DNA of 64,000 nt from a bacterium CG_4_9_14_3_um_filter_65_15. GTDB taxonomy: Bacteria; Krumholzibacteriota; Krumholzibacteriia; LZORAL124-64-63. The notes under the pieces were generated by a model. It made no database searches and was not told the origin of the DNA. It saw only the letters and a program-made list of their open reading frames with translations. The position numbers and the translations under genes are program-made. Shown here in pieces: positions 8,027-63,101 of this stretch (its first letter is position 1; each line of letters opens with the position of its first letter). The stretch is from contig PFVX01000059.1 of NCBI GenBank assembly GCA_002790835.1, positions 723 through 64,722 of the forward strand, written 5' to 3'.

Positions 8027-9345
8027 TTCCGCACACCCTCCCCGGTCCGGGCAATATCACGCCTGAAGGTCAAACCCTCGAAATGGACCTGATCCAGCAG
8101 GTCATAGGCTTTCTGTCGCGCCGCATCCAGGGATGGGCCCACCCCCACGGCGCCCAGGACACGGCCACCGCAGGTGACCAGTTGCCGGTCGTCCCGACGG
8201 GTTCCCGCGTGGATGATCCAGCCGCCGTCGGAATTGGCGTCCGGCAATTCGATGGGGCGGCCCTGGGCGTAGGGTCCAGGGTAACCGTCGGCGGCGCCCA
8301 CGACGACCACGGCGTGGCGATCCCAGGACGTGAGTCCGGAACCGGTCCATCCGGTGGGGCCGGTGCCTTCGGGCCGGTGGGCGCCCTGGAGGTGACGCCC
8401 CAGTTCGCCGGTCGCCGTGGTCCAGCACAGGTCCAGGAAATCCCCCCGATAAAGCGGCAGGACCACTTGGGTTTCCGGGTCACCGAACCGGCAATTGAAT
8501 TCCAGAACCTGGGGGCCGCCGGCGGTGAGCATCAACCCCACGTACAGCACGCCGCGGTAGGGTATGTCGCGCCGACGCAGTTCGGCCAGGATGGGCAGGA
8601 CGATACGCGTGTCGATCTCGGCGTAGAGATCGCTCGGCAAGGCAACGGGCGCAAAGGCCCCCATCCCGCCGGTGTTGGGTCCCTGGTCCTGCTCCCCGAT
8701 GCGCTTGTGGTCCCGGCTGGGCGCCAGCAGGCAATAGTCCTGGCCATCGGTAACCACGAGCACGGACAGCTCGGTACCGTACAAGCAGTCCTCCATGAGG
8801 ATTCGTAGCCCGGATTGCCCGAAGGCCTGGTCCCGCAGACAGGTGTGGATATGGGCTTCGGCCTCCTCGCGGGTCGCGCAAACGGCCACACCTTTGCCCT
8901 GGGCCGCACCACACGCCTTGATCACCACGGGCAGATCGATCTTGTCGAGGTGTTTGAGGGCCGACTCGGCGCTGCTGAAGGCATGATAGTGGGCCGTGGG
9001 CACTTCGGCCGAGGCCAACACCTCCTTGGCGAACTCCTTGTCACCTTCGAGTCGGGCCCCCATGGCGCCCGGTCCGAACACGGCCAACCCCTCGCGCCTC
9101 AGGTCATCGGCGAGACCCGCGATCAGGGGATCTTCCGGCCCCACGATCACCAGGTCGATACTGCGGCTGCGGCAGAAGGCGACCAACCCGGCGGCATCAT
9201 TCGGACCCGGATCGAGGTTGGTGGCATTGTCGGCTGTTCCCGGGTTCCCCGGGCAGGCGAACAGGCGGGGCTTCTGGGGAGAGGCGGCCAATTGCCGAAC
9301 AATGGCATGCTCGCGTCCGCCGGATCCTACAACCAGAACGTTCAT
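8023..9345 (-). CDS. purD: Phosphoribosylamine--glycine ligase
   Basis: MNVLVVGSGGREHA, VGPEDPL, QGKGV, DHKRIGEQDQGPNTGGMGA, LEFNCRFGDPETQ, GGRVL; start ATG 9345. Confidence 0.96.
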   Translation of the reverse strand: MNVLVVGSGGREHAIVRQLAASPQKPRLFACPGNPGTADNATNLDPGPNDAAGLVAFCRSRSIDLVIVGPEDPLIAGLADDLRREGLAVFGPGAMGARLEGDKEFAKEVLASAEVPTAHYHAFSSAESALKHLDKIDLPVVIKACGAAQGKGVAVCATREEAEAHIHTCLRDQAFGQSGLRILMEDCLYGTELSVLVVTDGQDYCLLAPSRDHKRIGEQDQGPNTGGMGAFAPVALPSDLYAEIDTRIVLPILAELRRRDIPYRGVLYVGLMLTAGGPQVLEFNCRFGDPETQVVLPLYRGDFLDLCWTTATGELGRHLQGAHRPEGTGPTGWTGSGLTSWDRHAVVVVGAADGYPGPYAQGRPIELPDANSDGGWIIHAGTRRDDRQLVTCGGRVLGAVGVGPSLDAARQKAYDLLDQVHFEGLTFRRDIARTGEGVRK

Positions 9346-9440
9346 GCACGGCCGCTTTCGGTTCGGGTCCGTACAGGCCGAGGATACAGGCCCGCATAGG
9401 GGAAGTCTATAGCGTTTTCTCCAAGGAGGCCATGGCGGGA

Positions 9441-10397
9441 TTATTCCGCCGGCACGATCCGGGTGCCGGCACGGCCCTCGATGGCGGCGGCGAGGTTCTC
9501 CGGAGAGGTGATCACGACCTCGCGGCCGCCCGCAGCCAGGAAAGACAGGGCGGCCTCGACCTTGGGGCCCATGCTCCCGGCAGGGAACTCCCCGTCCGCG
9601 AGCATGGTCGCGGCGCGCTCCGCCGTCAATACCGGCAAGGCGACCTGGTCCGGAGTGCCGAACCCGGCAAAGACCACCTCCACCTGGGTGATGATCACCA
9701 GCGTATCGGCCCCGATGAGCCTGGCCAGCAGATCGCTCGCCCTGTCCTTGTCGATGACCGCATCGATCCCCTGCAGGTGGCCGTCCGCGTCCCGCACCAC
9801 GGGCACTCCACCTCCGCCGGTGGCGATGGTGAGCACGCCGCCCTCGACCAGGATCTTGATGGCGGGCCACTCCACCACTTCCCGCGGCATGGGGCTCGGC
9901 ACGACCCGCCTCCAGCCGCGACCTGCATCCTGGGCGAAACGCCAACCGTTCTCCCGCTCCAGGGCCCCGGCCTGCTGCTCGTCGTAGAAGGGACCGATGG
10001 GCTTGGTGGGCTTGTCGAAAGCGGGGTCGTCGGCGTCCACCCTGACCTGCGTGACGACGGTTGCCACGGGCATATCCAGCCCTTCGTCCCGCAGGGCGTT
10101 GGACAGGACCTGCTGGATCATGAAACCCAGACCACCCTGACTGTCGGCGCCGCACAGGAACAGGGGCATGTCCGGAATGCCGTGCAGGGCCTGGCCGGCG
10201 TCATTGCGCAACACGATGTTGCCCACCACCGGCCCGTTGCCGTGGGTCATGACCACCTGGTGCCCGGCCGCAGCAAGCCGGGCCACCTGGACCATGGTCC
10301 CGTGGGTGATGGCAACCTGCTGCTGGTAGGTGCCTTCCTGACCTTCGGGAATAATGGCATTGCCGCCCAACGCTATCACGAAGCGTCGGGTGGTCAC
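9441..10397 (-). CDS. arcC: Carbamate kinase
   Basis: VIALGGNA, THGNGPVVG, KPTKPIGPFY, GRGWRRVVPSP, GGGGVPV, AVIDKD, GSMGPKVEAA; GTG start overlaps the upstream stop (GTGA). Confidence 0.93.
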   Translation of the reverse strand: MTTRRFVIALGGNAIIPEGQEGTYQQQVAITHGTMVQVARLAAAGHQVVMTHGNGPVVGNIVLRNDAGQALHGIPDMPLFLCGADSQGGLGFMIQQVLSNALRDEGLDMPVATVVTQVRVDADDPAFDKPTKPIGPFYDEQQAGALERENGWRFAQDAGRGWRRVVPSPMPREVVEWPAIKILVEGGVLTIATGGGGVPVVRDADGHLQGIDAVIDKDRASDLLARLIGADTLVIITQVEVVFAGFGTPDQVALPVLTAERAATMLADGEFPAGSMGPKVEAALSFLAAGGREVVITSPENLAAAIEGRAGTRIVPAE

Positions 10398-22807: not shown

Positions 22808-25141
22808 TTAGCGAATAACTATCAGCCTTCCCCAGTATTCCTCGCGCTGGGGCATGACCACCTTGTAAATGTAGACGCCGGGGGCCACGGACTGCTGATC
22901 GCGGTTTTCCGTGTTCCAGTAGATTTGACCGCCCTTCATCAATTCGGGGCCGAGCTCCATGACATCGTCACCAGCGGCGGTGAAAACCTGAATCCGGGAA
23001 TCCTGCGGCAGGTTGGTAAAGACCACCGAACGGCCTTCAAAGCCGGGAAGCCCGGCGCCCGGCCGCAAGGGATTGGGAAATACATAGATCTCATCCCCCC
23101 CGGTATCCGGGGCCGCTCCCAGGTTGACCTGAACGAAGCTCTGGTTCCCGGTACCGTTGAAGAGGGAATTTTCGTCGCCCTGCCACCGCGGAGAGAAAAG
23201 CATGGTGTTGGTGGTGTTCTCCACCGTGGTCAGGGCGGTATTCCCGTAATCAAAAGTCGTCACGGAATAGTAGTAGGAGAAACCGTTGTAGACTTCGGAA
23301 TCGAAGAATCGCAAGGTATCGGATCCGGCGTCGGTCCCCGAGAAACACGCTGCGCGTTTTTCCTTGAAACACCGGGGAATGGGCAGAATGTCCGGACCAC
23401 CGCAGTAACCTTCCTGGCAGGATTCGGGGTTCACCAGGTCGTAGAGTCCGATCAATACCGGATGCTCCGGGTCGGCGGAAGGGGAACGCCAGACGGCCCA
23501 ACCCTGGAAGGTCTGACACACCAAACGAAATTCATCGTTAGGTTCGACAGAACCGCTACCGAAGGACATCATCAAACCCAAATCCAGGCTCCGCAATTCG
23601 GGCGAAGTACCCGAGGTATAGGTGTCGGATAAGTTCAAAACCGAACCGGCCTGATACACACCGCCGGCATAGGTTGCCAGCAGGATGTCGCCGTCAGCGG
23701 TTCCTGCGTTCCTGAAATTCAGCGCCGTGGCCAATTCGGGGGCCCCGTCCCACCGCTCCCAGGTGGCGCCATAATCCAGGCTGCGCAGGAGATCGAAGCC
23801 ATCCTCCAGGGCATACAGCACCTCGGGATTGGCCGAATCGGCCAGAAGACGCACTCGCGTCACTTTTGCGAGATTACTCTGGCCCGCCAAATTCGTTTGC
23901 TGCCAGGTCAGGCCCCCATCAGTGGTCCGGTATAGACCTTTCTGGGCAACCGCCATGACGATGACATCAGGATCCGCGTCACTGGTGACGCAGGAAAGCG
24001 CGTTGTTGATCCACTCCCCGGTCACGTCGGGATTCGCCACCAGAAGGTCCCCGTAAAGGTCGTGCCAGGTGGCGCCGTCATCGGTGCTCTCAAAGACTCC
24101 GTGAAACTGAAGGCTGGCCAGGAGGCGGTTCGGACGCACGGGGTCGCGATACAGGTCATTGACCACCGGATCGACCAGAACCTGAATCTCCGCATCCAGG
24201 TTTTCGAGGACCTGAAGGGGAACCCGGGAGAAACCCGCACCGCCGTCGTTTGAGCGGAAAAAGCCGAAATTATCCACGTGGACAAAGATGCTGTTGCCTG
24301 ACCAGACCAGGGAACGCACAGGGAACTGATTGGGCATCGGCTCGAATCCCGGATCCAATTGAGTCGTCAACTGGGTAAAACTCGCCCCGCCGTCATGGGT
24401 GAGAAAGAGACCTTTGGTCTTCGTCCCAACCAGAAAAGTGGCCGGATCAACCGGCGAAGTGGCGAGCCGGGTGACAAGGGTGGAACTGTTGAAGGTCCCC
24501 TCCGCGATGCGGGTCCAGCCGGCCCCCTGGTTCATGAAGAGCCCCACCGGGCCGATCTCAAAAGTCGAGCCATTCGTCAAAGCTGCGATCAGATCCCCAT
24601 CGGGGTTTTCCGCGAAGGCAACCACATTGACCTGCCTCCACGTCAGAGGAAGACCCTGGTTGAGTTGGCTCCACTCCTGGCTCTGGGCATCGTAGCGCCA
24701 GAAGCCGCCGTTGTTGGCCAGATTCAGCACCCCTTCGAAGGCACCGTTCCGGGAAGACCCCTGGTGAGTCCAGGTAAAGCGCAAGGGCGCACCCTGGGCT
24801 GATCCGATAACCCCGGAATTCAGGGTGGTGAAGCGGAAAACCCTGTCCACCTGGTCACCGAAACCACCGGAGACATCCACCGGGAAGCCAAGCCCGGTCG
24901 TATCGCGCAGAGTGAAGCAGGTGGCTTCGGAAATATCCAGGTTCGGCCAGCTGATCACCATTCCCAGGGGTTCGGTGGTCTGGAAATCCAGATGCACGGA
25001 TTTCGGGGAAATCAGGTAGAGGGAGTCTGCTGCACAGGCACTTTCCGGAGTCTGGGCCCCTGCCGTGGACGCCACGGTCAGCAAAACGCCGACGGCCAGG
25101 CACAGCCCGGACCGCTGGAAAATGGCGCTTCCGATCTTCAT
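22808..25141 (-). CDS. Secreted Asp-box (BNR) beta-propeller protein with FN3-like segment and T9SS-like CTD
   Basis: Signal peptide; five Asp boxes (THDGGASF, SNDGGAGF, STDDGATW, TTDGGLTW, SLDYGATW); FQGWAVWRS...NGFSYYYSVTTFD; CTD IYVFPNP...VAPGVYIYKV...LIVIR. Confidence 0.8.
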   Translation of the reverse strand: MKIGSAIFQRSGLCLAVGVLLTVASTAGAQTPESACAADSLYLISPKSVHLDFQTTEPLGMVISWPNLDISEATCFTLRDTTGLGFPVDVSGGFGDQVDRVFRFTTLNSGVIGSAQGAPLRFTWTHQGSSRNGAFEGVLNLANNGGFWRYDAQSQEWSQLNQGLPLTWRQVNVVAFAENPDGDLIAALTNGSTFEIGPVGLFMNQGAGWTRIAEGTFNSSTLVTRLATSPVDPATFLVGTKTKGLFLTHDGGASFTQLTTQLDPGFEPMPNQFPVRSLVWSGNSIFVHVDNFGFFRSNDGGAGFSRVPLQVLENLDAEIQVLVDPVVNDLYRDPVRPNRLLASLQFHGVFESTDDGATWHDLYGDLLVANPDVTGEWINNALSCVTSDADPDVIVMAVAQKGLYRTTDGGLTWQQTNLAGQSNLAKVTRVRLLADSANPEVLYALEDGFDLLRSLDYGATWERWDGAPELATALNFRNAGTADGDILLATYAGGVYQAGSVLNLSDTYTSGTSPELRSLDLGLMMSFGSGSVEPNDEFRLVCQTFQGWAVWRSPSADPEHPVLIGLYDLVNPESCQEGYCGGPDILPIPRCFKEKRAACFSGTDAGSDTLRFFDSEVYNGFSYYYSVTTFDYGNTALTTVENTTNTMLFSPRWQGDENSLFNGTGNQSFVQVNLGAAPDTGGDEIYVFPNPLRPGAGLPGFEGRSVVFTNLPQDSRIQVFTAAGDDVMELGPELMKGGQIYWNTENRDQQSVAPGVYIYKVVMPQREEYWGRLIVIR

Positions 25142-25216
25142 GCACACTGCCTTTCGCAAGAAAATCCGGCGGCCCGCGGACACCCCGCAAACGGGGTGTC
25201 CCGGCAGCCGAGTCGC

Positions 25217-30330: not shown

Positions 30331-33300
30331 TTACTTCACCATGGTGATCTTGTTGACCTGGACCTCATCACCGTAGCGAGCTTCGTAGAAGTACACGCCG
30401 GAAGCAACAGAGGAACCAGAGTTGCTGGTGCCGTTCCAGTCCACGGACTGGGTACCGGCATCCATCACGTCGTCGACCAGGGTCCGGACGAGTTCACCGC
30501 GAATGTTGAAGATCTTCACCGTCACATGACCACGCTTGGGCATGTTGTAGGAGACCGTAACCTTCGGGTTGAACGGGTTCGGGAAAGCCTTGGTCGCGAA
30601 CTGCGCTCCAGGAATCACGCCCGAGGGGGTACCACCGGAAGTCTGGCCAAACCAGTCCAGAACATCCGACAGAACCTGCGCGCGCGCGGTCAACGGAGCA
30701 GCGGCCTGGGCGCCGCAAGTCGGGTCGTCGTAGATGAACATGAAGTCATACGGCGTACTGACGAGCTTGCTGCCGTTGGCCCGAACGTTGGCAGTGGCAG
30801 CACTGTAGGTGTACTGACCAGCAACGCAACCGGGAGCCAGGAATTCGGCCAACTGCGTGGCGCCGGCACGCGGAGTCACGGCGTCGAACGTGTTGATTCC
30901 AAAGCAACCACCGTAGGCAACCCAGGAAGACTGATTCACGATGACACCGTTGCCTGCCAGAGCGGAGACGACGGGAGTGGCCTGGTTGTCGATCAACGGA
31001 AGCAGATTGGTGCTCACGAGATCCAGACCCATGTAGTCGTTCAAGAACGTCAGGGTGTTGGTCCCACTACCGTCGAGATCGTTGGCCAGCTCATCACCGG
31101 TCAGGAACATACCCTTGATCGGGTCGCCAGGAGCGGGCAGATCCAACCACGATGACACGAGGTCAACGTCGTTGCCATAGTCGCTGCTGGAGGCGAAATC
31201 GCCGTTGCTGATGGTGAACTTGGACAGATCGCCGGAGGTGTACAGCATGGTGTTGTAGTTGGCGATCTGACTGATGGAGGCACGACCACCGAGACCATTA
31301 CCCACACCGGAGCTCGGGCCCGTGGTGTAGTAAATGTCGTAGTCGCTGCCGGGAACGTAGCCCAGCTGATCCAAAGCGCTGTACCATTCCTGCTCTCCGC
31401 CACGGCGGGCGAAGTCGTTCCAGAACAACACCTCAGGCTGGGTGTAGTTGCCAGGAGTACCCGTGATCGACGGCAGGCCGTGCACGATGAAGTCCTGGTT
31501 GTAGGCCAGAGGATGGCTGAAATCACCGTAACCGGAGATGTCGCCGGGGATGTGGACGGACTTGATGTCGCCGGCCACATCGTCACTGGCTTCGATGTAG
31601 TAGTGAAGCACGTCACCGGGGTACAAGAAGCCGGTGTCGGGCAGGTCGAAGGCCCACACGTTCGGAGCAACGATGCCATTCACGTTACGAGCGGAGTCGC
31701 CAGCGGAAACGCCGGTCGTCGCGGTACCGAAGATGCTCGTGCGGTAAGCGTTGAACGCGGGGTTCGGCTGCATGGTCCAGTGCAGGATCGGAGGACCGTT
31801 CAGAACGGCACCGGTACGAACCAGCTTGACCGTGCAGGTGATCGAGTCGGCCGGATCGTTGGCCAGATCGGACGGCACGTTGGTGTTGTTGGCCGCATCG
31901 AACCGCACACTCAGGATCGAAGGATCCGTCATGTCGATAAGACCGACCTCAGGGAAGTTGTCCTGAGCCATGTCGATAACACGGTAGGTCACACCAGGAC
32001 CGGCGAAGGGGAAGACCTTCAGGTTCACGTTGTCGAAGTAGGGAGCAGGATAGCCGTCGAGGCCGGCGAAGTACTGCACACAACCCATACGGATCTGCAC
32101 CCTCTCACGAGCGGGCTGCACCCAGGACGTGGCGTCGTTAATAGGGCGGATGTAGTCGGGGCCACCGTAGTACACATAGCCCGTGCTGTTCCAACCCTGG
32201 GTCTCGATGTCCTCTCCCACGAGTGCGGAGCGCACGCCGAAGAAGTAGAAGATACCCGGGCTGTCAGGAGAGAAGTCCTCGTGACGGTAGACGTCGAAGC
32301 CGAACCAGAGACCGTCGTAGGTGGCGTTGGGCCACGTCATCTCGGGAGACTTGACGTAGTTGTTGATGGCCCCACCGGGGGACATGCCACCGGTCGGAGT
32401 CACAATCGCACCACCGGGGCCGTAGCACCAGTTGACGCACTGGCTGCCGCCGGTGCCGGGAACGACCACGCCGTCATCGATGAAGGCGACCTGGTTCGTA
32501 CCGTTGGTGTTACAGGGATCGATGTCGGACAGACCGCACCAGATCTGGGCGAAGTCGCCGACGGCGATCGGAGCCACCGTCGTCCAGTTACCCATACCGG
32601 TTTCGAAGTCGTCGAAGGTGCTGTAATTGTTGGCACCGTTGACCACGGAGACGGTCACGTCGTCCAGAGTCGCGGCGCCGAAACCACCATAGCAGTAACC
32701 TTCGGCCGAGTAGGCACCGTCAGAGAAGAAACGGAAATCGATGACGATTTCGTTGCCGTTGATGTAATCCCCGGGCAGGTAGGTGATAATCCCGGAGAAA
32801 GCCTCGGCCACGCCACCGGCACTGTCGCCGTTGAAGGTAAGGGCGTTCTGGTAGCCCAGAAGACCCGTGACCTGGTAGCTCAGGTAGACGTAGTCGTAGT
32901 CCTGCTCCACCTGATAAAGGATGTTACCGCTGACGGTGACCGTGGAGCTGGAAGAATTATCGAGGACGGAATAACGCCACTCGACGAGGTCGTTCCAGTC
33001 ATCCCCGTAACCGGCGAAGTTGGCTCCGCAGGCGGGGAAGTAGTCGCCGCACCACAGGCCGTTGCCGGTGATACCCAGGGTATCGAAGCCGGCGGGCGCG
33101 AACACATGCCAGTGGGAAGACGCGGCGTTACCGGACGTCAAATCGACCGAGCTCCAGCCGGCGGGCAGACGGTCAACGCCACAAACGGCATTTTCGAAGT
33201 CTCCCTGATAGAGGCCGCCTGGCCCCATCAGCTGAATGGTATCGCCGGCGGCCTTAGCGCCATAAGCGTTACTGCCGGATTGCCAGGCGTTGACATCGCT

Positions 33301-33387
33301 AGTGAAGCTGGGGATATCCCCGGCCACACTGCTCATCGCCATACCCAGCACCAGGGCGACACAAGCAAACATGGTGAATTTCTTCAT
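30331..33387 (-). CDS. 1018-aa secreted Cys-containing protein with FlgD-Ig/T9SS type A-like CTD (candidate major surface protein)
   Basis: Signal peptide MKKFTMFACVALVLGMAMSSVA; CTD KAFPNPFNP...IFNIRGELVRTL...WNG...VASGVYFY...KITMVK; GAT-like domain before the CTD. Confidence 0.85.
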   Translation of the reverse strand: MKKFTMFACVALVLGMAMSSVAGDIPSFTSDVNAWQSGSNAYGAKAAGDTIQLMGPGGLYQGDFENAVCGVDRLPAGWSSVDLTSGNAASSHWHVFAPAGFDTLGITGNGLWCGDYFPACGANFAGYGDDWNDLVEWRYSVLDNSSSSTVTVSGNILYQVEQDYDYVYLSYQVTGLLGYQNALTFNGDSAGGVAEAFSGIITYLPGDYINGNEIVIDFRFFSDGAYSAEGYCYGGFGAATLDDVTVSVVNGANNYSTFDDFETGMGNWTTVAPIAVGDFAQIWCGLSDIDPCNTNGTNQVAFIDDGVVVPGTGGSQCVNWCYGPGGAIVTPTGGMSPGGAINNYVKSPEMTWPNATYDGLWFGFDVYRHEDFSPDSPGIFYFFGVRSALVGEDIETQGWNSTGYVYYGGPDYIRPINDATSWVQPARERVQIRMGCVQYFAGLDGYPAPYFDNVNLKVFPFAGPGVTYRVIDMAQDNFPEVGLIDMTDPSILSVRFDAANNTNVPSDLANDPADSITCTVKLVRTGAVLNGPPILHWTMQPNPAFNAYRTSIFGTATTGVSAGDSARNVNGIVAPNVWAFDLPDTGFLYPGDVLHYYIEASDDVAGDIKSVHIPGDISGYGDFSHPLAYNQDFIVHGLPSITGTPGNYTQPEVLFWNDFARRGGEQEWYSALDQLGYVPGSDYDIYYTTGPSSGVGNGLGGRASISQIANYNTMLYTSGDLSKFTISNGDFASSSDYGNDVDLVSSWLDLPAPGDPIKGMFLTGDELANDLDGSGTNTLTFLNDYMGLDLVSTNLLPLIDNQATPVVSALAGNGVIVNQSSWVAYGGCFGINTFDAVTPRAGATQLAEFLAPGCVAGQYTYSAATANVRANGSKLVSTPYDFMFIYDDPTCGAQAAAPLTARAQVLSDVLDWFGQTSGGTPSGVIPGAQFATKAFPNPFNPKVTVSYNMPKRGHVTVKIFNIRGELVRTLVDDVMDAGTQSVDWNGTSNSGSSVASGVYFYEARYGDEVQVNKITMVK

Positions 33388-33729
33388 TTTTTTCCCCCCA
33401 TCATCGGCACGAAGCCGATACATGGTTAGGCGAACGATTGAATGCACACGCCAGATTCAGGCGAATTAGCGGTACATTGACGGGCGACAAATAAGTTCCC
33501 AGAGACTGCACACGCAGAGCGAACTGCGCTTCACGAGCGAGACATCCTCCTCTGATGCAGACCCATTGGTGACGAGCGAACAAGCGTCAAGTGATTTCAG
33601 CGAACTGCAAGTGGAAAACAGGGACAGCGCACCTCAAGGGATGGGAACGGATTGTCTTTGAGTCGCACCATTACCTTACCCGAACCACGCTGGGGAGTCA
33701 ATAGTCTTTCGGAAAAAAATATCATGCCT

Positions 33730-54388: not shown

Positions 54389-54417
54389 AGCGTCCTCCTT
54401 CGGACAGGGGTTTGGAG

Positions 54418-54445
54418 TTGCCCGCTACCGGATCTGGCTTACAAT
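54418..54445 (+). promoter_or_regulatory. Sigma70-type promoter (TTGCCC-N16-TACAAT) for lpxH
   Basis: Hexamers in the divergent gap; the -10 ends 8 nt before the ATG. Confidence 0.5.
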
Positions 54446-54453
54446 GGGTTCCC

Positions 54454-55245
54454 ATGAGCGCCAAACGACAACCCACGGCCGTCATCCTGGCCGACGCCCA
54501 TTTCCACCTTCGACCTGATGCCGCCGAGAGCCGGCGCATCGAGCGATTCCTGGAGCTGCTCGAGGCCATCCACGGCGTGGACCATCTGATCCTGCTCGGT
54601 GATATCTTCGACTTCTGGTTCGACTATCCGCATTTCCGTCTCGACGGCTACGATGAGATCCTCCAGGGCCTGGACGGGGTCCGAGCCTCCGGAACCACTG
54701 TCCATTTTGTCGGGGGCAACCACGACATCTGGGCGGCCGGTTACCTCCATCGGCGCTTCGGCAGTGAGCCCGACGGCATGCCGTTGGATCTCCAACTGGG
54801 GGATCTGCGGGTCCGTTTCGATCACGGTGACGGCCTGCTCAGCCACGATTGGCTCTATCAAACCTTCCGGACCATTGTCCGCACGCGGGCCGGAATCCTC
54901 CTGGCCAAGTCCCTGCACCCCGAGATCCTGTTCGCCCTCAGCACCTGGCTCAGCGGCCACAGCCGCAACGCCTCGCGGGACGAGGGTCGGGAAATCGAAG
55001 CCAAGGCCTCCGCCTGGCTCGGCCGCCAGCAGGACGCCCCCTGGGACCTCATCGTCATCGGGCACGTCCACCACCGTTTCACGACCACCGTCCAGGGGCG
55101 GACCATGGCCGCCCCCACGGGCTGGTTCAACCGCCTGGACCTGGGCGTAATCCAGGACGGAAAATTCGCCCTGCTCGATTTCGACCAGGACACCCTGCCG
55201 GATTTCGGATCCCGCGAAACGACCCTACCAGGTCATTCCCAATGA
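54454..55245 (+). CDS. lpxH: UDP-2,3-diacylglucosamine hydrolase-like metallophosphoesterase
   Basis: ADAHF, LGDIFDFW, GGNHD, HGDG, GHVH motifs; the only plus-strand gene; overlaps the porV 3' end by 21 bp. Confidence 0.8.
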   Translation: MSAKRQPTAVILADAHFHLRPDAAESRRIERFLELLEAIHGVDHLILLGDIFDFWFDYPHFRLDGYDEILQGLDGVRASGTTVHFVGGNHDIWAAGYLHRRFGSEPDGMPLDLQLGDLRVRFDHGDGLLSHDWLYQTFRTIVRTRAGILLAKSLHPEILFALSTWLSGHSRNASRDEGREIEAKASAWLGRQQDAPWDLIVIGHVHHRFTTTVQGRTMAAPTGWFNRLDLGVIQDGKFALLDFDQDTLPDFGSRETTLPGHSQ

Positions 55246-56163
55246 GATCTTGTTCCCGTCCTCGAAGCCCTCGGTGGTCATGTCCTCGTACGCATAATCC
55301 AACCGCAGGTTCCTCAAACGGAAGCCCACTCCCGCGGTGATCCCCTGGGATTCGTAGTTGATGCGCGACCCCAACCGCAGGGCCAGCTCGGGAATGAGGT
55401 GCAGCTCGGTACCGACATGCGCCTTTGCCGTGGTGTCATTGGGCATGAAGAGTTCGCCCGCCAAAGTGAGTTTCCCCTGAAAAACCCGGGCCACCGGAAC
55501 GTAGGCGGCGCCAATCCGCACGGCCGTCGGCAAATCGAAAGGCTCATCCCGCAGGTTCATCTGGCCGCCGATATTGGTGGCCGAAGCGGCGAAGACCAGC
55601 CCCTCGATCAAGGCCTGGTGCGTGAGGAAGAAATCGAAGGCGAAGCCGCTGTCGTTGTAGAAGTCGATCTTCTCGTAAATCATCTTCGCACCGATGCCGA
55701 ACGCAAAGCGATCTCCCAAGGGGTGGGCATAGGATACTCCCAGGGCCACATCGTAAGGCTTGAAGGTCCCCTCGAAAACATCGACACCCGATTCCAGGGT
55801 CTTGCGATCGATCTCGTCCGAGTAGAATCCCATGAATGTCACGCCCAGAACGCCCTCACCGACCCGATGAGCCACCCCCGCGGCTTCCTGGCTGAACAGC
55901 CCGAGGTATCGGTCGTGCTGCAGGACCAGCTCCGTTTCGAAATCGGCAAATACGTTGTTGGCGGGATTCCAGAAGAGAGCCGTCCCGCCGCTGCTGGAGG
56001 CAACTCCCGTCTCCCCCATGCCGGCCTCTCGCGCGCCGACACCCATCCTCAGGGAAAGCAACCCCGCATCACCAGGGTTGCCGGCCAAGGCAGGCAACGC
56101 AATTGTGATCAGGGTCAAAACCAGGAACAACCCGAGGGTGGCCGACAACCGATTGCGATTCAT
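55225..56163 (-). CDS. PorV/PorQ family outer-membrane beta-barrel
   Basis: Signal peptide; LSLRMGVGAREAGMGE...ALFWNPA signature; barrel strands; C-terminal Trp (ISLGMTW). Confidence 0.85.
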   Translation of the reverse strand: MNRNRLSATLGLFLVLTLITIALPALAGNPGDAGLLSLRMGVGAREAGMGETGVASSSGGTALFWNPANNVFADFETELVLQHDRYLGLFSQEAAGVAHRVGEGVLGVTFMGFYSDEIDRKTLESGVDVFEGTFKPYDVALGVSYAHPLGDRFAFGIGAKMIYEKIDFYNDSGFAFDFFLTHQALIEGLVFAASATNIGGQMNLRDEPFDLPTAVRIGAAYVPVARVFQGKLTLAGELFMPNDTTAKAHVGTELHLIPELALRLGSRINYESQGITAGVGFRLRNLRLDYAYEDMTTEGFEDGNKISLGMTW

Positions 56164-56201: not shown

Positions 56202-59200
56202 CTATCTCACGACTGTGAATGATACGACACTGTGGGTGGTTTCGCCTCCGGCATCGACGACCAGCCTGCTGATATACATGCCGGTCGCCACACCGTCGAG
56301 CGGGACGATCAGGGTGAAGGGATCGCCACTCACCACGTCATTCCAGGCGGTGGTGGTGACCAACTCACCTTCAAGGTTGTAGATGAACGCCCGAGCCCGG
56401 CCCGGCGAACGGGCTTCCCCGCGGACATACAGGGGTCCCTCGCCCAGGGGGTTGGGGTAAAACGTATGGCTGCCGAGAACCATACCGGAACCGATCGAGC
56501 CGGGGCTCTGAACGATCCAGGCTTCGGCGTCGTAATCCCCGTTGCGCCAGATACCGCCGCCGGACATGGGCCAGGCGGCCGTTTCCGCAGCGACATCCCG
56601 CCACATCATGACCGTGCTGGAGTAATCTCCGTCCAGGCTCACCCCGTCCGCGCCGGGTTCGGTAATACGCAGGAAGGAACCCGCCGCCACAAGGTCCAGC
56701 TCCCCATCCCCAACCAGGTCTCCCAAGGCAGGCGTAACCGCTCCGGTTCCGGGTCCGGACACGGGCCAACCTTGGATTTCCTCACCCCGTTCCTTCAGCG
56801 CGATAAGGCTACCGTCCTCCAGCGGGAAGATGGTCTGGGGCCGGGAGGAATCCACTCCCCTCAACCAGGCGACCAGGGGGCCTCCACCGCCCACACCGGT
56901 GCCCATATCGCGCGGGCGGCGTGGCCAGCCATCGGACCAGTCGCCTCCGTGCCCGATTCCACCCAGCAAATCCGGTCCCACAAAGTACCCGCCGGGCGCC
57001 ATGGCCGATTGGACCGTTACCGCGGGGCCCCACTCATGGATCGACCCCACCTTCACCATGGCGGCATTGAAGAACAGGGTTGCACCGGAACCGTCCCGCC
57101 CAGCCACCTGGACGAAACGCAATTCCTCCTCGCCCTCCTTCTGCGCCAGGCCCCAGGTTAGCGGCCATGGGCCCGGAATTACCGGCAAGGCAATACTCCC
57201 CCGCAGGGGTGCATCATTCGGGGCGTCCCGGTCGTAGGCCACCAGTTCAAGAGAGGATTCGCCGGTCAAGCTGTCGTGGAGCGCGCAGAGAAACCACTGC
57301 CCGAAAGCCAGGGTCGGTGGGGCGCCGACCGCGCCCGGTCCCAGTCCGACGGCAGGGAAAAACCCCGGCTGGCCCGAGGCGAACCCATCAAGCCAGGCAT
57401 GCCCGTTGTCCTCGTAGATCACGAAGGCCGCCACCGAAACGTCTTCCCGTGCCGGACCGAGTGGGTCACCGAGAGACGCCAGGATCGGAGGCACCCGACA
57501 AGTGGGCAAATCGGCCCAGAGCCCAAATCCGTCGCCTCCAGATACCAACGGCTGGCCGGTACCGTCGAAAGCATACAGCCCGTGGGGACCGGTCAGCACG
57601 ATCTCCGGCTTCGCATCGCCATCCAGATCACCCAGAGCAACAGGGAGATTCCAGTTCACCGCGGAGCCGTCTCGAGTCGAAACCAGCAGGGGTTCCACCG
57701 TCGCGGAGTCTCCATCGGCATCAAAATATTCCCGCAGGTTCCCGTCAAGGGCATAGACCTCCCCGGCATGACCGGCCAGGATGATCTCCGCCGGTGTTCC
57801 GCCTCCGTCCAGATCCCCGACCAGGACGTGACTGCCGCGCAGATCCACACCGGGCAAGGTCCGCTGCCGCGAGAACATGGGGCCTTGAGCGGCTTCCCCG
57901 ACCGACCCCACCGAGAACCTAATGGTGTCGGCGAAAGCGATTCCCCACAGGGTGTCGCCTTCTACGACCCCGAGGAAAACACCCTGTGAATCAGCAACCA
58001 CGTTGCTGAAATCCCTCAAGACGATTCCCGTGTAGGCGCCGGCTGCCGATTCGGTCCCCGGTCTGGTATAGGGGCCGAATTCGTGGTTGTCTTCACCCCG
58101 GAACGAGTCGTCGTCACCACCGTAGGTGTAGTCCGAAGGGATGGGCGAATCCAGGTCCTGGATGCCGTCGGCCTCCTCCAGGTCCACCGCCTTGTGCAGA
58201 GGGTCGGAGTTGAAGAGATTATCCTCCGCGTCGTACACAGCCCGGATCAATCCCTCGTCGACGTGCCAGATGTAGACACCACTCCCCGCTGCCGTCACAC
58301 CGCCGGGCCGGCCGGTGTTGGCGCTCATGGCAAAATCCCACTCGGCCCCCGCCAACGACTCGAGGGTGTCGGCCTGTGGGTCGTAAACCCCCGTCGGCCA
58401 ACCATTCCCGTAATCGGAGTTCGCATCGTAAAAGTCCGGGATTCCATCGTGGTTGAGGTCGCCCGGAAACGAAAACATCCCATTCCCGTCAGGGTCCTGG
58501 AGGCGATACTCCAGCAGCCAGTATTCCTGCCCGTTGATGTCCACCCGGGCAGACGCGGTCTCGGCAGAGGGGTTTTCCGCCGGGGTCAGGGCATAGGTGC
58601 CCGCAGCATGGGGATCCACCACCTGGGGATCCAACCAGCCGACCAGGTACTTGTTGAAAGCACAGGGTTCAGGGGGAATGAGGCCTGCTCCGGAGTAGAG
58701 TCCATACCCCATCAGCCCGAAAATCCCGATTCCCTGACTGTCGACATTCCCGGCCGGAGTAAAATCGGTCAACGAGAGCATGCCCAGCCGCAAACCCACC
58801 TCGAAACAATAGACGCCCAGGCTGCCCAAACGACCGAAGGGCTCCTGGTACTCGGTCTCAGGAAGAATCAACACCCGGTCGATCCCTGCGGCGCCCCCGA
58901 AGTCGTCCCCCGCCAACCATGGACTCTCCAGGATCGTATCCTGCACGGCGGAGGCGAAATCCCTCGGCCCCAGATACGTGCTGAAAATCTGTTCGGGATT
59001 AAGGCCATAGAAATCGGTCTCCCCACCGGCCCCGGCGTGGATCAGGATCAGGGTGTCGAAACCGCTGAAATCAACGACCGGGTCCAACGCCGCCACCACG
59101 TCCCGCGCCAGGGCAATCGACTGTTCGCCATATTGGGGGTGGTTTCCGTAGAATCCCATCGGGTGCTCCAGATTCACGACACCCGGAGCAATGGTGAAAT

Positions 59201-59642
59201 TCAGGGTAAAGCGATGTCCGCTGACGGAGCGGAAATACTCGGCGACATTGGTCAGCAGGTAATCGAAGTAGACCGAATCGTGGGCCGCGAAAGTGTTGGG
59301 GATTTCGAACTGGACGGGCTGAGGGAAATCTCCCGGGACAACTCCATAACGGCCCAGCAGCAGGCTGTCGCTGAAGTCGCAGAGCATGACCAGGGCGTTC
59401 AGCGCGGCCGGCGCCTTTTCTCCGGCCAGGCGACGCATCTGCAGGTCGCGGTCCCCTTCCGCCCTCAAGGGACGCGTGGCGACTTCGAGGTCGGCGGCGT
59501 GGCTGCGGATGCGGGTCAACAAAGCCTGGGGAATCGGCTCACCGGTCGAGGGATCCCCCACCGCGGAGGCTGCTTCCTGAATTCCGATCAGGGCCAGCAA
59601 TATCATGACCGGAATCAAACGGGTATTTCTGGGGTGGGGCAT
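56202..59642 (-). CDS. M6 (immune inhibitor A) family-like protein with degenerate zinc site, FG-GAP repeats and T9SS-like CTD
   Basis: ALVMLCDFSD, YFRSVSGHRF, ILIHAGAGGE, Met-turn GLMGYG, AFNKYLVGW; HExxH position reads FEVGL; GDLDG repeats; CTD FYPNP...IYNLEGELV...VATGMYI...FTVVR. Confidence 0.85.
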   Translation of the reverse strand: MPHPRNTRLIPVMILLALIGIQEAASAVGDPSTGEPIPQALLTRIRSHAADLEVATRPLRAEGDRDLQMRRLAGEKAPAALNALVMLCDFSDSLLLGRYGVVPGDFPQPVQFEIPNTFAAHDSVYFDYLLTNVAEYFRSVSGHRFTLNFTIAPGVVNLEHPMGFYGNHPQYGEQSIALARDVVAALDPVVDFSGFDTLILIHAGAGGETDFYGLNPEQIFSTYLGPRDFASAVQDTILESPWLAGDDFGGAAGIDRVLILPETEYQEPFGRLGSLGVYCFEVGLRLGMLSLTDFTPAGNVDSQGIGIFGLMGYGLYSGAGLIPPEPCAFNKYLVGWLDPQVVDPHAAGTYALTPAENPSAETASARVDINGQEYWLLEYRLQDPDGNGMFSFPGDLNHDGIPDFYDANSDYGNGWPTGVYDPQADTLESLAGAEWDFAMSANTGRPGGVTAAGSGVYIWHVDEGLIRAVYDAEDNLFNSDPLHKAVDLEEADGIQDLDSPIPSDYTYGGDDDSFRGEDNHEFGPYTRPGTESAAGAYTGIVLRDFSNVVADSQGVFLGVVEGDTLWGIAFADTIRFSVGSVGEAAQGPMFSRQRTLPGVDLRGSHVLVGDLDGGGTPAEIILAGHAGEVYALDGNLREYFDADGDSATVEPLLVSTRDGSAVNWNLPVALGDLDGDAKPEIVLTGPHGLYAFDGTGQPLVSGGDGFGLWADLPTCRVPPILASLGDPLGPAREDVSVAAFVIYEDNGHAWLDGFASGQPGFFPAVGLGPGAVGAPPTLAFGQWFLCALHDSLTGESSLELVAYDRDAPNDAPLRGSIALPVIPGPWPLTWGLAQKEGEEELRFVQVAGRDGSGATLFFNAAMVKVGSIHEWGPAVTVQSAMAPGGYFVGPDLLGGIGHGGDWSDGWPRRPRDMGTGVGGGGPLVAWLRGVDSSRPQTIFPLEDGSLIALKERGEEIQGWPVSGPGTGAVTPALGDLVGDGELDLVAAGSFLRITEPGADGVSLDGDYSSTVMMWRDVAAETAAWPMSGGGIWRNGDYDAEAWIVQSPGSIGSGMVLGSHTFYPNPLGEGPLYVRGEARSPGRARAFIYNLEGELVTTTAWNDVVSGDPFTLIVPLDGVATGMYISRLVVDAGGETTHSVVSFTVVR

Positions 59643-59703: not shown

Positions 59704-59733
59704 AGTATAAGTACCGCTGCAGGACCGGGTCAA
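59704..59733 (-). promoter_or_regulatory. Sigma70-type promoter (TTGACC-N18-TATACT) for the M6-like/porV pair
   Basis: Near-consensus hexamers about 60 bp upstream of ATG 59642. Confidence 0.7.
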
Positions 59734-59960
59734 CGATTCCCGGCCCTGCATGATGGAAAAGGAGAGCCCGACGAAGTACCTGTCACCCCTGATCGACATT
59801 CCCTCGCCGGGCTCTCACATGTGCTGGTGTCCCCGTCCTCGCAACCGCCATCTGATCCCCAGTGGTGCCAACCTTTCCGAGAATCCGATCTCGCCTGCCC
59901 GACGGGTGATGGGGGGAAAACCACCAACACACACTCAATGATCTCTGGCCGTACCGGACG

Positions 59961-61697
59961 TCAGCGTTTGCGTCCGGAAGAACTCTTGCTGCGCGAACTC
60001 GAATCGCTGGAGCTGCTCCCCGACGATTTGGAGCGCGACGGTTGGCTGCGCTCGGTCGCCCGGCTATCGTTGCTCCGGCTGCGCACCTCGGTCCCGCCAC
60101 TGCTGCGGCTTCCGTTTTCCTGCTTTCGCGGGGCCACGCGGGGAGCCGGCTTGGTCTCGGTCTTGGACCGCTGCGTATTGGGCGCCGCTCGTCCGGTGCT
60201 TTCCCGGGTCCGGCTGGGACTGGTCGTTCCGGAGTTCCAGATCCGGGTACCCCTGCGCCGGGGTTCCACGGGCCGGATGGTGCGGGACTCGGTCCCGGCA
60301 GGCTGGCGGGGGGTCCGCACCGTCGCCCCACTCCCCGGGGTCCGCGCTCCAGCGGGTCGATCAGGAGTCCGAACCCGTGTGCCACGCCCGACGGGTTCCA
60401 AAGCGGGCTTTTCCGTTCCGCTCCCCGAAACATGGCGATAAGATTCCCGCGTGCGTCCTGTCGTGCCGGGTGAAACCATCGTTCCGGGCTGGCGAATGCG
60501 CAGACCTGGCCTGGTCTCGCCCCCCACCGGTTCGGTCACCACGGGTCCGGTGCGGGCAATCAACTGCTCGCCCCCGTAGGAACCGCGAACATCCTTGCTT
60601 CCACGGGTGCCGCCGGCGCCCGGAGCCCGGGTCAAATCGTCGTTCCGGGCCAAGGGTGTGCGGCGGGTCATGGCCGTGCGTTGCCTGGCATCGGGCCCGT
60701 CACCCTGGATCAGCGGGGAAACCCGGCCATATTCCCGGCTCTTGCGCGCGATGCGGTTGCCGTCACCGGGGGTAAGCGGTCGATAGCGGCGCCCTCCCCC
60801 GTTGTAATAGGTGTAGATGTCGCCCCGATAGTAGGGGGAGTCGCACCAGACCCAGCTCCCGGAGTACCAGTTGTAGCCCAGGCTCGGCCCGCAGGAATAA
60901 CTGGGCCAGTACCAGAAGTTCACCCAGGGCCTCCGGTTCCAGGGATCGATGTAGGCATACACGGGCTGAGAGTAGATGGGGTAGTAGCCATAGTCGTCGT
61001 ACCAGCGGTTGTACCATCCGTAATCGTACTCGATGTCCAGGGTGCAGTTGTCCGCGTAGGGTTCGTACCCCTGGTCGGAATCAATGTGGCACTGGGAGCA
61101 CAGGTACCGCGGGTGGTCGACTTTGCGATGCACGTAATAACTGGCGTAGTTCGACACGACCAGGTTCTCGGTATCCTCCAGACCGGTTACGGCATAGTTG
61201 ATCTCATTCATGGCCAGGAAGGGATCTCCTGCCACCTCGTAGCGGAAGGGGTCCCGACGATTCTCGCCGTGGAAGTCGATTTCCAATTCCCGCAAATCAA
61301 AGGGGTAAGCCGAGGCAAGGACCTCCACGAAACCCTCACCTTCCAGGCTGCCCGTCTCCAGGGGCGCCGATCCGGGCACCGGCACCTCGTACTCGTGGCC
61401 GGCAAACACGAAACCATCGTCCAAGCGGCTGCGCGGCCACAGCAGATCCACCTGGCCCTCGGTATCGATGCGATAGACCACGGCATAGGCGTCCCGATTG
61501 AGCTGGAAACCCACGCTCATGCGCTCGTCGCGCTGGTATACCTCGTCGCTGTCCTTGTCCAGCCAGATGCCGGCACGCAGTTCAACTTTGGAGTAGTCGA
61601 AATCGCCGGAGGCATCCTCTGCGACCGTCGGCGTGGCACCGGAGGCGGTACCCCAGACCAACATGGCCAGCAGGCAGATCGTGATCTCGCGTTTCAT
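59961..61697 (-). CDS. DUF4384-domain secreted protein with CxxCH motif, Tyr/Trp-rich region and disordered tail
   Basis: Signal peptide; WLDK...Y...E......NRDAYAVVYRIDTEG.V.LLWP DUF4384 pattern; YLCSQCH; Arg/Ser/Pro-rich C-terminus. Confidence 0.8.
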   Translation of the reverse strand: MKREITICLLAMLVWGTASGATPTVAEDASGDFDYSKVELRAGIWLDKDSDEVYQRDERMSVGFQLNRDAYAVVYRIDTEGQVDLLWPRSRLDDGFVFAGHEYEVPVPGSAPLETGSLEGEGFVEVLASAYPFDLRELEIDFHGENRRDPFRYEVAGDPFLAMNEINYAVTGLEDTENLVVSNYASYYVHRKVDHPRYLCSQCHIDSDQGYEPYADNCTLDIEYDYGWYNRWYDDYGYYPIYSQPVYAYIDPWNRRPWVNFWYWPSYSCGPSLGYNWYSGSWVWCDSPYYRGDIYTYYNGGGRRYRPLTPGDGNRIARKSREYGRVSPLIQGDGPDARQRTAMTRRTPLARNDDLTRAPGAGGTRGSKDVRGSYGGEQLIARTGPVVTEPVGGETRPGLRIRQPGTMVSPGTTGRTRESYRHVSGSGTEKPALEPVGRGTRVRTPDRPAGARTPGSGATVRTPRQPAGTESRTIRPVEPRRRGTRIWNSGTTSPSRTRESTGRAAPNTQRSKTETKPAPRVAPRKQENGSRSSGGTEVRSRSNDSRATERSQPSRSKSSGSSSSDSSSRSKSSSGRKR

Positions 61698-61723: not shown

Positions 61724-62737
61724 CTAGAAGCGGACGAACCGGGGTTTACTGTCGGGCACCGTTGGCGTCTGGGGAGCCATGAGCTCCGGCAGCCCGGAAA
61801 TCAACTGATAGGCCCAGACGATCTGGACCGAAACCGTGGGGGCAATACCCACCACACCGAACTTGGCGTAATGGATGCTCTGGGTGGCCGAGTCAGAGAG
61901 TTCCACCACGTAAACGTGTCCTTCGACAAGCTCCAGTTTCCCCGTATGGGAATATCCGTCGGCCGGGGCCCAGGACACACCCTCAAAGATCAAATTGCCC
62001 AGGGAATCGGTGAATACCCCGAAATCCTGCAGCCTCACATCGGTAGACGTGCGCTCCACATAGGGAACAGTCCCTTCGAAGGAAATCCTGATATCGGCGG
62101 GGGAGCCAACGGCGTTCGGGTCGACCCGGCCGGCGTAGAGGCTTTGGGGATGTTCGCCGGCCTGGCTGAAATCGAACCCGCCCAACGCCTGGTTGGAACC
62201 GTTGATCGAGTCGAATACCTCGACGAAGGTCCCCGGAGGGCTCATGGGTAACGGGGCGTCGATGACGGCTTCATAGCTCAAGGCGCTTTCCATTCCCGCC
62301 GCATTGACGGCAGATACGGCATATTCGTATTGATAGCCGTTGGCGGCTCCGGTATCCACGAGCCAATGGAGGCCGGTTTCCCAGTCGAAATTCTCATCCC
62401 AGGCCACTTCACCGAGGTAATAGAATTCCCGATTGGGATTATTCAGATCGCCCTCGCTGAAATCGCGGTAATAGACGACATACTTGACGACATTTTCGTT
62501 GTAGCGGCCGTCATAAGGGGAGTAGGAAATGTCGTACCAGAAGATCGACACCTCGTTGTCCCCGCTGACCGACGAAACCCCTACCGGAACCACGGGCGGA
62601 TTGAGGGTGTCGACGCAGCTGATGCAGTCCTCCTGGTTGCAACCGGAGGTCGCCATCAGCCCCACGACGGACAAGGCCAGGGCCACCAGGCCCCACCCTG
62701 TAACTCTTGAAGACCGTTTCCGTGTCCGCGTCATCAT
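61724..62737 (-). CDS. Lipoprotein with an FN3-like domain and a C-terminal beta domain
   Basis: RBS GGAGG; lipobox TSG-C; PP..P.GV.SVSGDNEV...W; NGYQYEYAVSAVNAAG.ES.LS; HYAKFGV...WAYQ. Confidence 0.8.
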   Translation of the reverse strand: MMTRTRKRSSRVTGWGLVALALSVVGLMATSGCNQEDCISCVDTLNPPVVPVGVSSVSGDNEVSIFWYDISYSPYDGRYNENVVKYVVYYRDFSEGDLNNPNREFYYLGEVAWDENFDWETGLHWLVDTGAANGYQYEYAVSAVNAAGMESALSYEAVIDAPLPMSPPGTFVEVFDSINGSNQALGGFDFSQAGEHPQSLYAGRVDPNAVGSPADIRISFEGTVPYVERTSTDVRLQDFGVFTDSLGNLIFEGVSWAPADGYSHTGKLELVEGHVYVVELSDSATQSIHYAKFGVVGIAPTVSVQIVWAYQLISGLPELMAPQTPTVPDSKPRFVRF

Positions 62738-62784
62738 CAGCCACCTCCAAAGCCAATGCAATTCCTCAACATATTCGGGGACAA

Positions 62785-62800
62785 CGCACGGTTCATGCCA
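62785..62800 (-). promoter_or_regulatory. Putative sigma54 promoter TGGCATGAACCGTGCG
   Basis: GG and GC correctly spaced (-24/-12), about 50 bp upstream of ATG 62737; a sigma54 activator gene lies upstream. Confidence 0.5.
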
Positions 62801-63101
62801 CCTTTGAAGCCAGGGGCTCCACGAACCAGCCTGTCTGTCCACATGGTGTCCTCAGAACCCATCATGAGGGGGAAGAAAAATGTTCTCGATTATATTTCAA
62901 AGAGTTACCAAACCATCCCACATGGTGGGAATGAGCATCCAGAAAAAATTTTTTGCCGAGCATCCCCCTCAAACCCAGCGACCTGGGGTCCTCGGGGAGC
63001 AATCCCCCGGATTGGTTTGGAGACATTGTGTCCAAAAGGGGACTGGAGAATCGGAGGTGGGCGGGTACGGCCAGAGCACGCCGGTGCGCCTGAAAATGGG
63101 C

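Follow-up and report, generated by a model that had tools for sequence, protein, structure and literature searches.

What function remains to a protease-like protein which has lost all three of its zinc ligands, and is encoded by a gene which appears to be intact? This question is raised by a 64,000-nucleotide stretch of DNA from the Krumholzibacteriota bacterium CG_4_9_14_3_um_filter_65_15 (contig PFVX01000059.1; referred to here in its full length as the window, with all coordinates given on it), in which an uninterrupted open reading frame (ORF) of 1146 amino acids (aa) at 56202–59642 on the reverse (−) strand encodes a signal peptide followed by an M6-like domain, an FG-GAP propeller and a C-terminal domain (CTD). 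A sequence-only reading of the window had described the product as an M6-derived pseudo-protease maintained for a non-proteolytic role or for a different chemistry, and we can confirm that the ORF contains no stops or frameshifts. On balance, we favour the explanation that the protein is a catalytically dead descendant of the M6 (InhA-type) metalloproteases which serves as the surface partner of the PorV/PorQ-family outer-membrane β-barrel encoded by the adjacent gene.

Loss of the zinc motif from a protein of M6 ancestry

The HExxHxxGxxD zinc motif of the M6 family is absent from the window protein and is replaced by F-E-V-G-L-R-L-G-M-L-S (58773–58805, −), such that only the Glu and the Gly are kept, as the sequence-only reading had stated. 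In this register F280 takes the place of the first His, E281 that of the catalytic Glu, L284 of the second His, G287 of the Gly and S290 of the Asp ligand, with D293 corresponding to the conserved Asp of '..LYD'. The register was obtained with MAFFT, in which the window segment YCFEVGLRLGMLSLTD aligns with VHEFGHLLGLPDLYD, AHEFGHSFGLPDLYD and AHEFAHYLGIPDLYD from the loci L060, L061 and L076, respectively, and again in an hmmsearch alignment. It was also unchanged when the window clade was compared with the HExxH-bearing clade by hhalign (probability 100%, E 1.5e-95, 429 columns), which pairs YcfEvGLrLGMLsLsD with ~~HEfGH~lGLPDLYD.

An HExxH-bearing relative was needed to bridge the window family to InhA, and this was provided by the L061 protein, in which AHEFGHSFGLPDLYD aligns with AHAFGHDLGLPDEYD of the InhA2 structure, HAGPGQEAD with HAGVGQEAG, and FGLMGSGIW with WSLMSGGSW. 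The scaffold motifs listed in the sequence-only reading could be placed against InhA2 in the same manner, with HAGAGGE opposite HAGVGQEAG, the Met-turn FGLMGYG opposite WSLMSGGSW, and AFNK opposite SPQNK; the retained Met-turn region of the window protein (D301-S-Q-G-I-G-I-F-G-L-M311-G-Y-G-L) lies at 58698–58742 (−).

M6 ancestry is also indicated by profile and structural comparisons. A profile of the HExxH-bearing members matches InhA (E 1.3e-16), and the M6-domain model TIGR03296 matches residues 119–380 of the window protein (E 6e-18) with a score of 65.7 bits, which is below the cut-off of 110.8 bits exceeded by the HExxH-bearing L060 and L061 proteins (118 and 140 bits). PF05547 (Peptidase_M6) found no match in the window protein at E ≤ 1 in a Pfam search, and searches of PDB sequences with the protein, with the full-length family profile and with the domain profile at E ≤ 10 found no protease. 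When a domain-only AlphaFold model, which was poor (predicted local distance difference test, pLDDT, of 52.7), was used in Foldseek, the three best PDB matches were to InhA2 (4yu6 and 4yu5, E 6.6e-7 to 3.7e-6) and adamalysin-type metzincins ranked after these, and with the full-length model only β-propellers were found among the top 50 matches. On the Foldseek matches and the alignment of M311, the window protein has the metzincin fold and Met-turn of M6.

In comparison with InhA (MEROPS M6; Bacillus anthracis InhA2, PDB 4YU5/4YU6), the window protein shares the fold of the catalytic domain, HAGxGxE, the active-site helix with its Gly, the ..D after the motif, the LMxxG Met-turn and the NK, and differs in having lost both His and the Asp ligand, which are now Phe, Leu and Ser. 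The C-terminal half is also different, as the propeller and CTD replace the C-terminal domains of InhA, which are a VEG-like and a MAM domain, and the host is a Gram-negative member of the Fibrobacterota–Chlorobiota–Bacteroidota (FCB) group, unlike Bacillus.

Fixation of the loss and selection on the dead site

We identified 368 homologues in the protein database at E ≤ 1e-5, and selected the best 120 of these as an orthologue set (full length, 43–62% identity, from Krumholzibacteriota or unclassified metagenome-assembled genomes, MAGs). The sequence-only reading had asked whether an orthologue alignment would reveal a clade-wide loss, and this was found to be so, with 120/120 carrying GSLGVYCFE[VF]GL[RH]LGMLSLSDFTP with few conservative substitutions. 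Column entropy smoothed over 21 residues reaches its protein-wide minimum at residue 283, within the dead site (0.28 bits compared to a mean of 1.59 bits), and when calculated per 50-residue block is 0.65–1.3 bits in the M6-like half and 1.4–2.6 bits in the propeller half.

At 62% amino acid identity to the nearest orthologue, synonymous sites would be saturated and dN/dS is unsuited, and we counted codon turnover at the motif in its place. When the 24 codons around the motif are compared between 31 orthologous loci, synonymous changes make up 80% of the pairwise differences, and the invariant Gly, Leu and Ser residues nearby use 3–5 codons each, with Ser encoded by both AGY and TCN. The replacement of the zinc ligands has become fixed throughout the Krumholzibacteriia-type clade and is maintained by purifying selection, in agreement with the earlier view that the gene has been maintained. 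Judged from the alignments, the site is dead for zinc, yet selection on it is stronger than on any other part of the protein.

When a single genome for each GTDB species was scanned by pattern and tblastn, at least 459 genomes were found to encode relatives in the form of intact, full-length orthologues. Proteins of the window clade are named 'hypothetical protein' or 'M6 family metalloprotease-like protein' in their source records.

Repeated loss of the zinc site in a widely distributed superfamily

A search of 1.84 billion representative proteins with the domain profile returned 7696 matches at E ≤ 1e-3 and 555 at E ≤ 1e-30, mostly 1000–1160 aa long, and the superfamily extends over the Krumholzibacteriota, Latescibacterota, Eisenbacteria, Cloacimonadota and Gemmatimonadota. 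The sequences recovered include those with the canonical HExxHxxGxxD motif (e.g. HEFGHxxGxPDLYD) and HExxHxxGxxT, as well as HQxxH (mainly Cloacimonadota), HMxxR (Eisenbacteria type), [LI]MxxF and many further degenerate forms. Catalysis appears to be dispensable in this family, as only 35 of the 188 sequences included in a neighbour-joining (NJ) tree keep HExxH plus D/T; a further 22 keep both His but have lost the Glu, 26 have one His, and 105 have neither. Fitch parsimony on this tree places both His in the ancestor with ~11 independent losses of the pair and ~19 changes at the Glu column, though these counts are approximate as the tree has no support values. The window clade is nested within a 74-leaf clade of fully degenerate sequences, for which the nearest outgroups have HE(Q/A)P, then HQSS, and then HEHD.

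We also compared 118 distant representatives chosen without pattern selection, and in these the zinc-ligand columns are variable while H202-A-G-x-G, the helix glycines, M311 of the Met-turn (kept in 95%), W459-H-x-D-E and V486-D-L-E-E-A-D-G-x-Q are 83–96% conserved. The last two form a pair, WH[IV]DE ... VDLEEADGxQ (residues 459–496), retained by 83–95% of the representatives and so above the zinc ligands (W459-H-V-D-E ... V486-D-L-E-E-A-D-G-I-Q495 in the window protein, 58155–58268, −). HMMER gave no alignment of this pair to InhA, and its role may be to bind calcium, to form an interface or to provide a second functional site.

Proteins of this kind have already been recognised by NCBI curators through the naming of NF052323 as a 'T9SS-dependent M6-like inactivated metalloprotease' (T9SS, type IX secretion system), which lowers the novelty of our finding. 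The bare observation of a dead site is unsurprising, given that pseudo-proteases are common and that this kind is flagged by an NCBI annotation model, and the added value here lies in the evolutionary series and the universal linkage to PorV/PorQ-family genes described below. The window protein matches NF052323 (E 2e-48) at 165.1 bits compared to a cut-off of 600 bits, and nine distant relatives are all below the cut-off too; the true members P0244, P0251 and P0255, which have the [LI]MxxF motif, score 603–632 bits. NF052323 members belong to the same superfamily, and share with the window protein an M6-like domain with a degenerate motif, an FG-GAP propeller, a putative type-A CTD, a length of ~1040–1150 aa and a gene adjoining a PorV-family gene. 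However, their motif is [LI]MxxFxxGxxA in which the Glu has also been lost, whereas the window protein keeps it, and on the NJ tree (which is rough) their clade is apart from the FELS clade of the window protein with HExxH-bearing lineages between the two. The genes are also arranged differently, as the NF052323 member at the one locus examined (L085, P0244) lies directly downstream of a canonical PorV (252 bits, cut-off 250), whereas the window gene has a PorQ-leaning paralogue downstream. The window clade is further set apart by what lies upstream, namely a lipoprotein gene, a DUF4384 gene and the structured RNA. These comparisons place the window protein in a sister clade to NF052323, as what appears to be a distinct lineage outside that model. 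Our literature searches found no paper on this protein family, and a text match to 'PorV2' was discarded because it consisted of 'PorV' and a reference superscript.

Domain architecture and linkage to a PorV/PorQ-family gene

The M6/InhA-like metzincin-fold domain, with the conserved region downstream of it, covers residues ~80–560 (57963–59405, −) on the basis of TIGR03296, Foldseek and hhalign. It is preceded by a putative Sec-type signal peptide at residues 1–27 (MPHPRNTRLIPVMILLALIGIQEAASA; 59562–59642, −) which was called by eye, without a predictor, from its basic n-region, hydrophobic core and AxA-like end. In the full-length AlphaFold2 model (pLDDT 82.4, predicted template modelling score, pTM, 0.82), residues 275–285, which include part of the degenerate motif, form a helix, residues ~550–1050 a β-rich propeller, and residues 1060–1144 a terminal β-sandwich. 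The propeller (residues ~560–1050; 56493–57962, −) is of the FG-GAP/integrin-alpha-like type with calcium-type DxDGxG loops, as the FG-GAP_3 match (27 bits, Pfam cut-off 26.9), the Foldseek matches to FG-GAP/integrin-like propellers and the profile matches to CRTAC1, ITFG2 and integrin alpha all indicate. The repeats and loops noted in the sequence-only reading are both retained, with DxDGxG loops found at residues 383, 610, 641 and 672 of the protein.

We regard the C-terminal β-sandwich (residues ~1058–1146; 56205–56471, −) as a probable T9SS type-A-like CTD. The pattern YPNP...IYNLxGExV...GMYxxRL is readable in the window protein (YPNP...IYNLEGELV...GMYISRL), the region is all-β in the AlphaFold2 model, and the type-A sorting domain model TIGR04183 matches the orthologous positions in the relatives L065 and L068 at 30.3 and 34.3 bits, above its cut-off of 23 bits. 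A profile of the relatives' C-terminal regions also matches the PorU CTD 6za2 (E 0.0017). The CTD reported earlier is present and probably of this type, although the match of TIGR04183 to the window protein itself is weak (see below).

Directly downstream of the M6-like gene and on the same strand is a gene for a 312-aa outer-membrane β-barrel (55225–56163, −), which scores 148.6 bits with the PorV/PorQ-family model NF033709 (cut-off 90) and is below the equivalog cut-offs for PorQ (76.5 vs 220), PorV (62.3 vs 250) and PorV2 (60.3 vs 325). All of the loci with sequence downstream of the M6-like gene have a PorV/PorQ-family ORF 3′ of it in the same orientation (71/71; 13 further loci are truncated contigs and stand outside this count), and the 71 loci include HExxH- and HQxxH-bearing members from the Cloacimonadota, Gemmatimonadota and Eisenbacteria. 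Across at least five phyla the M6-like gene is always linked to a PorV/PorQ-family gene, irrespective of which form the motif takes, and the linkage persists between phyla at ~30% protein identity.

The genes porU and porV are also adjacent in the Bacteroidota. The PorU–PorV and PorZ–PorQ pairs of Porphyromonas gingivalis resemble the window pair in that a large CTD protein is coupled with a PorV/PorQ-family barrel, and in these the partners of the barrel are protease-like (PorU) and a β-propeller (PorZ). It should be noted that the window protein has no sequence homology with PorU (C25-type) or PorZ outside the CTD, and that nothing in our analysis points to sortase activity or A-LPS (anionic lipopolysaccharide) binding. 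The PorU–PorV and PorZ–PorQ pairs of the attachment complex (PMC12365241, PMC9143113) are precedents for cargo–barrel pairs. In Flavobacterium johnsoniae, type-B CTD cargo and the cognate PorP/SprF shuttle are encoded by adjacent genes (PMC12618676), and this follows the same genetic logic of a cargo gene followed by the gene of a dedicated outer-membrane barrel, though the window pair differs in having a type-A-like CTD and a barrel of the PorV/PorQ family. A cargo-then-barrel gene order implies stoichiometric, specific pairing and surface anchoring.

Interpretation and alternative explanations

As a dead M6 descendant and partner of the adjacent barrel, the window protein would be secreted by the T9SS and act at the cell surface, where the barrel may anchor or shuttle it in the manner of PorV–PorU, PorQ–PorZ and PorP/SprF with type-B cargo. 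We would expect it neither to bind catalytic zinc nor to cleave peptides, and the retained cleft (helix 275–285, with E281 facing the Arg or His at position 285) could provide a groove for a peptide or envelope ligand; the very high conservation within the clade suggests that the cleft helix still binds something. As the family is indifferent to the catalytic residues while the pairing and the fold are invariant, the conserved function is unlikely to be proteolysis. The zinc site has been lost many times while WHxDE...VDLEEADG and the PorV/PorQ linkage have stayed across at least five phyla, and we take this as a sign that the conserved function is a non-proteolytic one in the envelope, connected with type IX secretion, a system not known to have been studied experimentally in these phyla. 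The series from HExxH to HQxxH to fully degenerate motifs also offers a natural case of an enzyme turning into a binding protein.

Several observations weigh against this interpretation. The match of TIGR04183 to the window CTD is only 13.6 bits and below the cut-off, and gene adjacency is no proof of a physical interaction between the M6-like protein and the barrel. An alternative metal site may be provided by E281, D293, H202 and H460 with the DLEEAD cluster, and a purely structural relic would not usually be conserved to the extreme degree seen at the dead site, which would also suit the retention of some form of chemistry.

We nonetheless consider it unlikely that the protein is still an enzyme with a different chemistry, using a new centre built from E281, R/H285 and D293 or from the WHxDE...VDLEEADG cluster. 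Such a centre would explain why E281 is kept in 119/120 orthologues and D293 in 117/120, why only Arg or His is ever found at position 285, which lies one turn of the helix away from E281, and why the dead-site helix is the most conserved segment of the protein, and the WHxDE...VDLEEADG cluster is conserved superfamily-wide independently of the zinc motif. However, sister clades which are otherwise intact have Gln, Val, Met, Leu or Ser in place of the Glu, with ~19 changes at this column on the tree, and the cluster is found equally in HExxH-bearing members and so is no replacement for a lost site. Position 285 alternates between Arg (68/120) and His (52/120) and is therefore no fixed ligand, and for this reason we rejected H285 as a shifted zinc ligand of general occurrence; the residue may pair with the retained E281 rather than bind a metal. 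At the sequence level there is no newly conserved His or Asp in the window clade which could rebuild a zinc site. The sequence-only reading had pointed to the Cys of YCFEVG as a sign of different chemistry, but we reject a Cys nucleophile because C279 aligns with the small residue that is conserved ahead of the first His, and this residue is the Ala of xAHExxH in both InhA2 ('FAHAFGH') and L061 ('TAHEFGH'); position 279 is Ala in 3/120 close orthologues and throughout the Latescibacterota-type sister groups (WAFE, YAYQ) as well. An explanation at least as improbable is that the M6-like domain is vestigial, with function confined to the propeller as an adhesin or ligand receptor, and that the protein is a T9SS cargo like any other, without a special tie to the barrel. 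Integrin-like FG-GAP propellers are common binding modules, and many T9SS cargoes are adhesins (PMC12618676), yet conservation is far stronger in the M6-like half than in the propeller half and peaks at the dead site, and the PorV/PorQ linkage across phyla at such low identity is unlike that of a typical variable cargo.

Finally, we can refute an artefact or a decaying pseudogene, in which the motif would be the product of sequencing or assembly errors or of relaxed selection. This is supported by nothing that we found other than that the source is a metagenome assembly, and is contradicted by the same motif in 120 independently assembled orthologues and dozens of GTDB genomes, by the absence of any frameshift or stop in 1146 codons, and by strong synonymous turnover with fixed amino acids; the substitutions are real, and the assembly errors which the sequence-only reading had allowed for are excluded. 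In returning to the pairing of a dead M6-like protein with its barrel, we note that the pair may be a component of the secretion machinery or a dedicated cargo. We also offer, tentatively and with considerable doubt, a wider proposal in which the pair is an ancient and unrecognised T9SS module of non-Bacteroidota FCB phyla and a counterpart of PorU–PorV/PorZ–PorQ, in which an ancestral metalloprotease that processed cargo or CTDs repeatedly became a non-catalytic adaptor, and in which a ~185-nt RNA class (described below) may regulate the module of the fully degenerate clade. If true, the carriers of this module would be the Krumholzibacteriota, Latescibacterota, Eisenbacteria, Cloacimonadota and Gemmatimonadota.

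Promoter and structured RNA upstream of the M6-like gene

The gap of ~320 nt located 5′ of the M6-like gene is conserved and holds a promoter and a structured RNA. The promoter is σ70-like (TTGACC-18-TATACT, 59704–59733, −) and ~60 nt upstream of the ATG. The sequence-only reading had described a strong promoter; sites of this kind are no more frequent in the window than expected by chance (3 found compared to 2.3 expected), but this one is conserved as ATTGAC(C)-N17/18-TATAAT in aligned orthologous loci. A σ54 promoter was rejected by eye, as a TGGCAC-like string inside the RNA element is without a −12 GC element.

The structured RNA element is ~185 nt long and lies between the DUF4384 gene and the promoter (59753–59933, −). 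Conservation of this block exceeds that of the flanking proteins, and no match to it was found in Rfam 15 at E ≤ 1. RNAalifold predicts three helices, in which a long-range helix closes the structure, an outer stem resembles a terminator and precedes a U-run, and an inner hairpin has the invariant loop GAUCAGGGG, with which the 5′ UUCCCCCCAUC could form a pseudoknot. Compensatory changes are seen in 18/21 base pairs, and 91.8% of cells are paired compared to 76.3% in shuffles and 37–53% in slid controls. A covariance model matches the window RNA at 146.7 bits (E 2.7e-35) along with 55 other loci, ~20 of which are outside the model-building set, and every match lies directly 5′ of an M6-like gene and on the same strand as that gene. 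The element is confined to the fully degenerate clade, with none found beside HExxH, HQxxH or NF052323-type genes. As the promoter sits between the RNA element and the start codon, the RNA is outside the mRNA made from this promoter. It may belong to the 3′ end of the transcript that comes from upstream, serve as a leader or be a small RNA in its own right. The element has the look of an RNA family that has yet to be described, and as an unannotated structured RNA it represents a separate lead which is possibly more novel than the M6-like protein itself. We note that the Latescibacterota-type locus L055 has three tandem matches to the RNA model at 5404–5713 (53.9, 29.8 and 20.5 bits), suggesting that the element has been duplicated locally.

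Conserved gene cluster and other features of the window

In diverse orthologous loci the order of genes is that of a ~340-aa protein with a lipoprotein-like signal, a DUF4384 protein, the M6-like gene, the PorV/PorQ-family gene and a convergent LpxH-like metallophosphoesterase. The first gene of the cluster in the window (61724–62842, −) encodes a 372-aa protein with a lipoprotein-like signal (..LMATSGC) which found no Pfam or NCBIfam match and has syntenic homologues in most of the loci L001–L062. The second encodes a secreted DUF4384 protein of 578 aa (59961–61697, −; PF14326, E 3.4e-10), in which a single CxxCH string (LCSQCH) occurs and the long tail is rich in Arg, Ser, Gly and Thr. Both travel with the M6-like/PorVQ pair in Krumholzibacteriia- and Latescibacterota-type loci. 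The LpxH-like calcineurin-type phosphoesterase (54412–55245, forward strand) is convergent to the PorV/PorQ-family gene and is below the LpxH cut-offs; it is syntenic in most Krumholzibacteriia- and Latescibacterota-type loci, and may indicate an envelope or lipid A connection.

The GTDB genomes containing loci L012, L015, L020, L021, L029, L030, L038, L067 and L077 are titled Fibrobacteraceae, Fibrobacter sp., Patescibacteria group or Armatimonadota, and as these nine loci are syntenic with Krumholzibacteriia/Latescibacterota- or Cloacimonadota-type ones, the MAGs are likely to be mislabelled or mis-binned.

Two more large proteins with T9SS CTD matches are encoded in the window at 30331–33447 (−) and 22808–25183 (−), and their matches are to Por_Secre_tail (27 bits, cut-off 23) and to a PorZ-like CTD. 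The host organism therefore has several T9SS cargo candidates, although of the T9SS itself the 64-kb window shows only the PorV/PorQ-family gene alongside such CTD proteins. Elsewhere in the window, a 710-aa ORF (8023–10155, −) is matched by PurD (phosphoribosylamine–glycine ligase) over residues 271–702 only, and the ~270 N-terminal residues may represent an over-extended start or a fusion.

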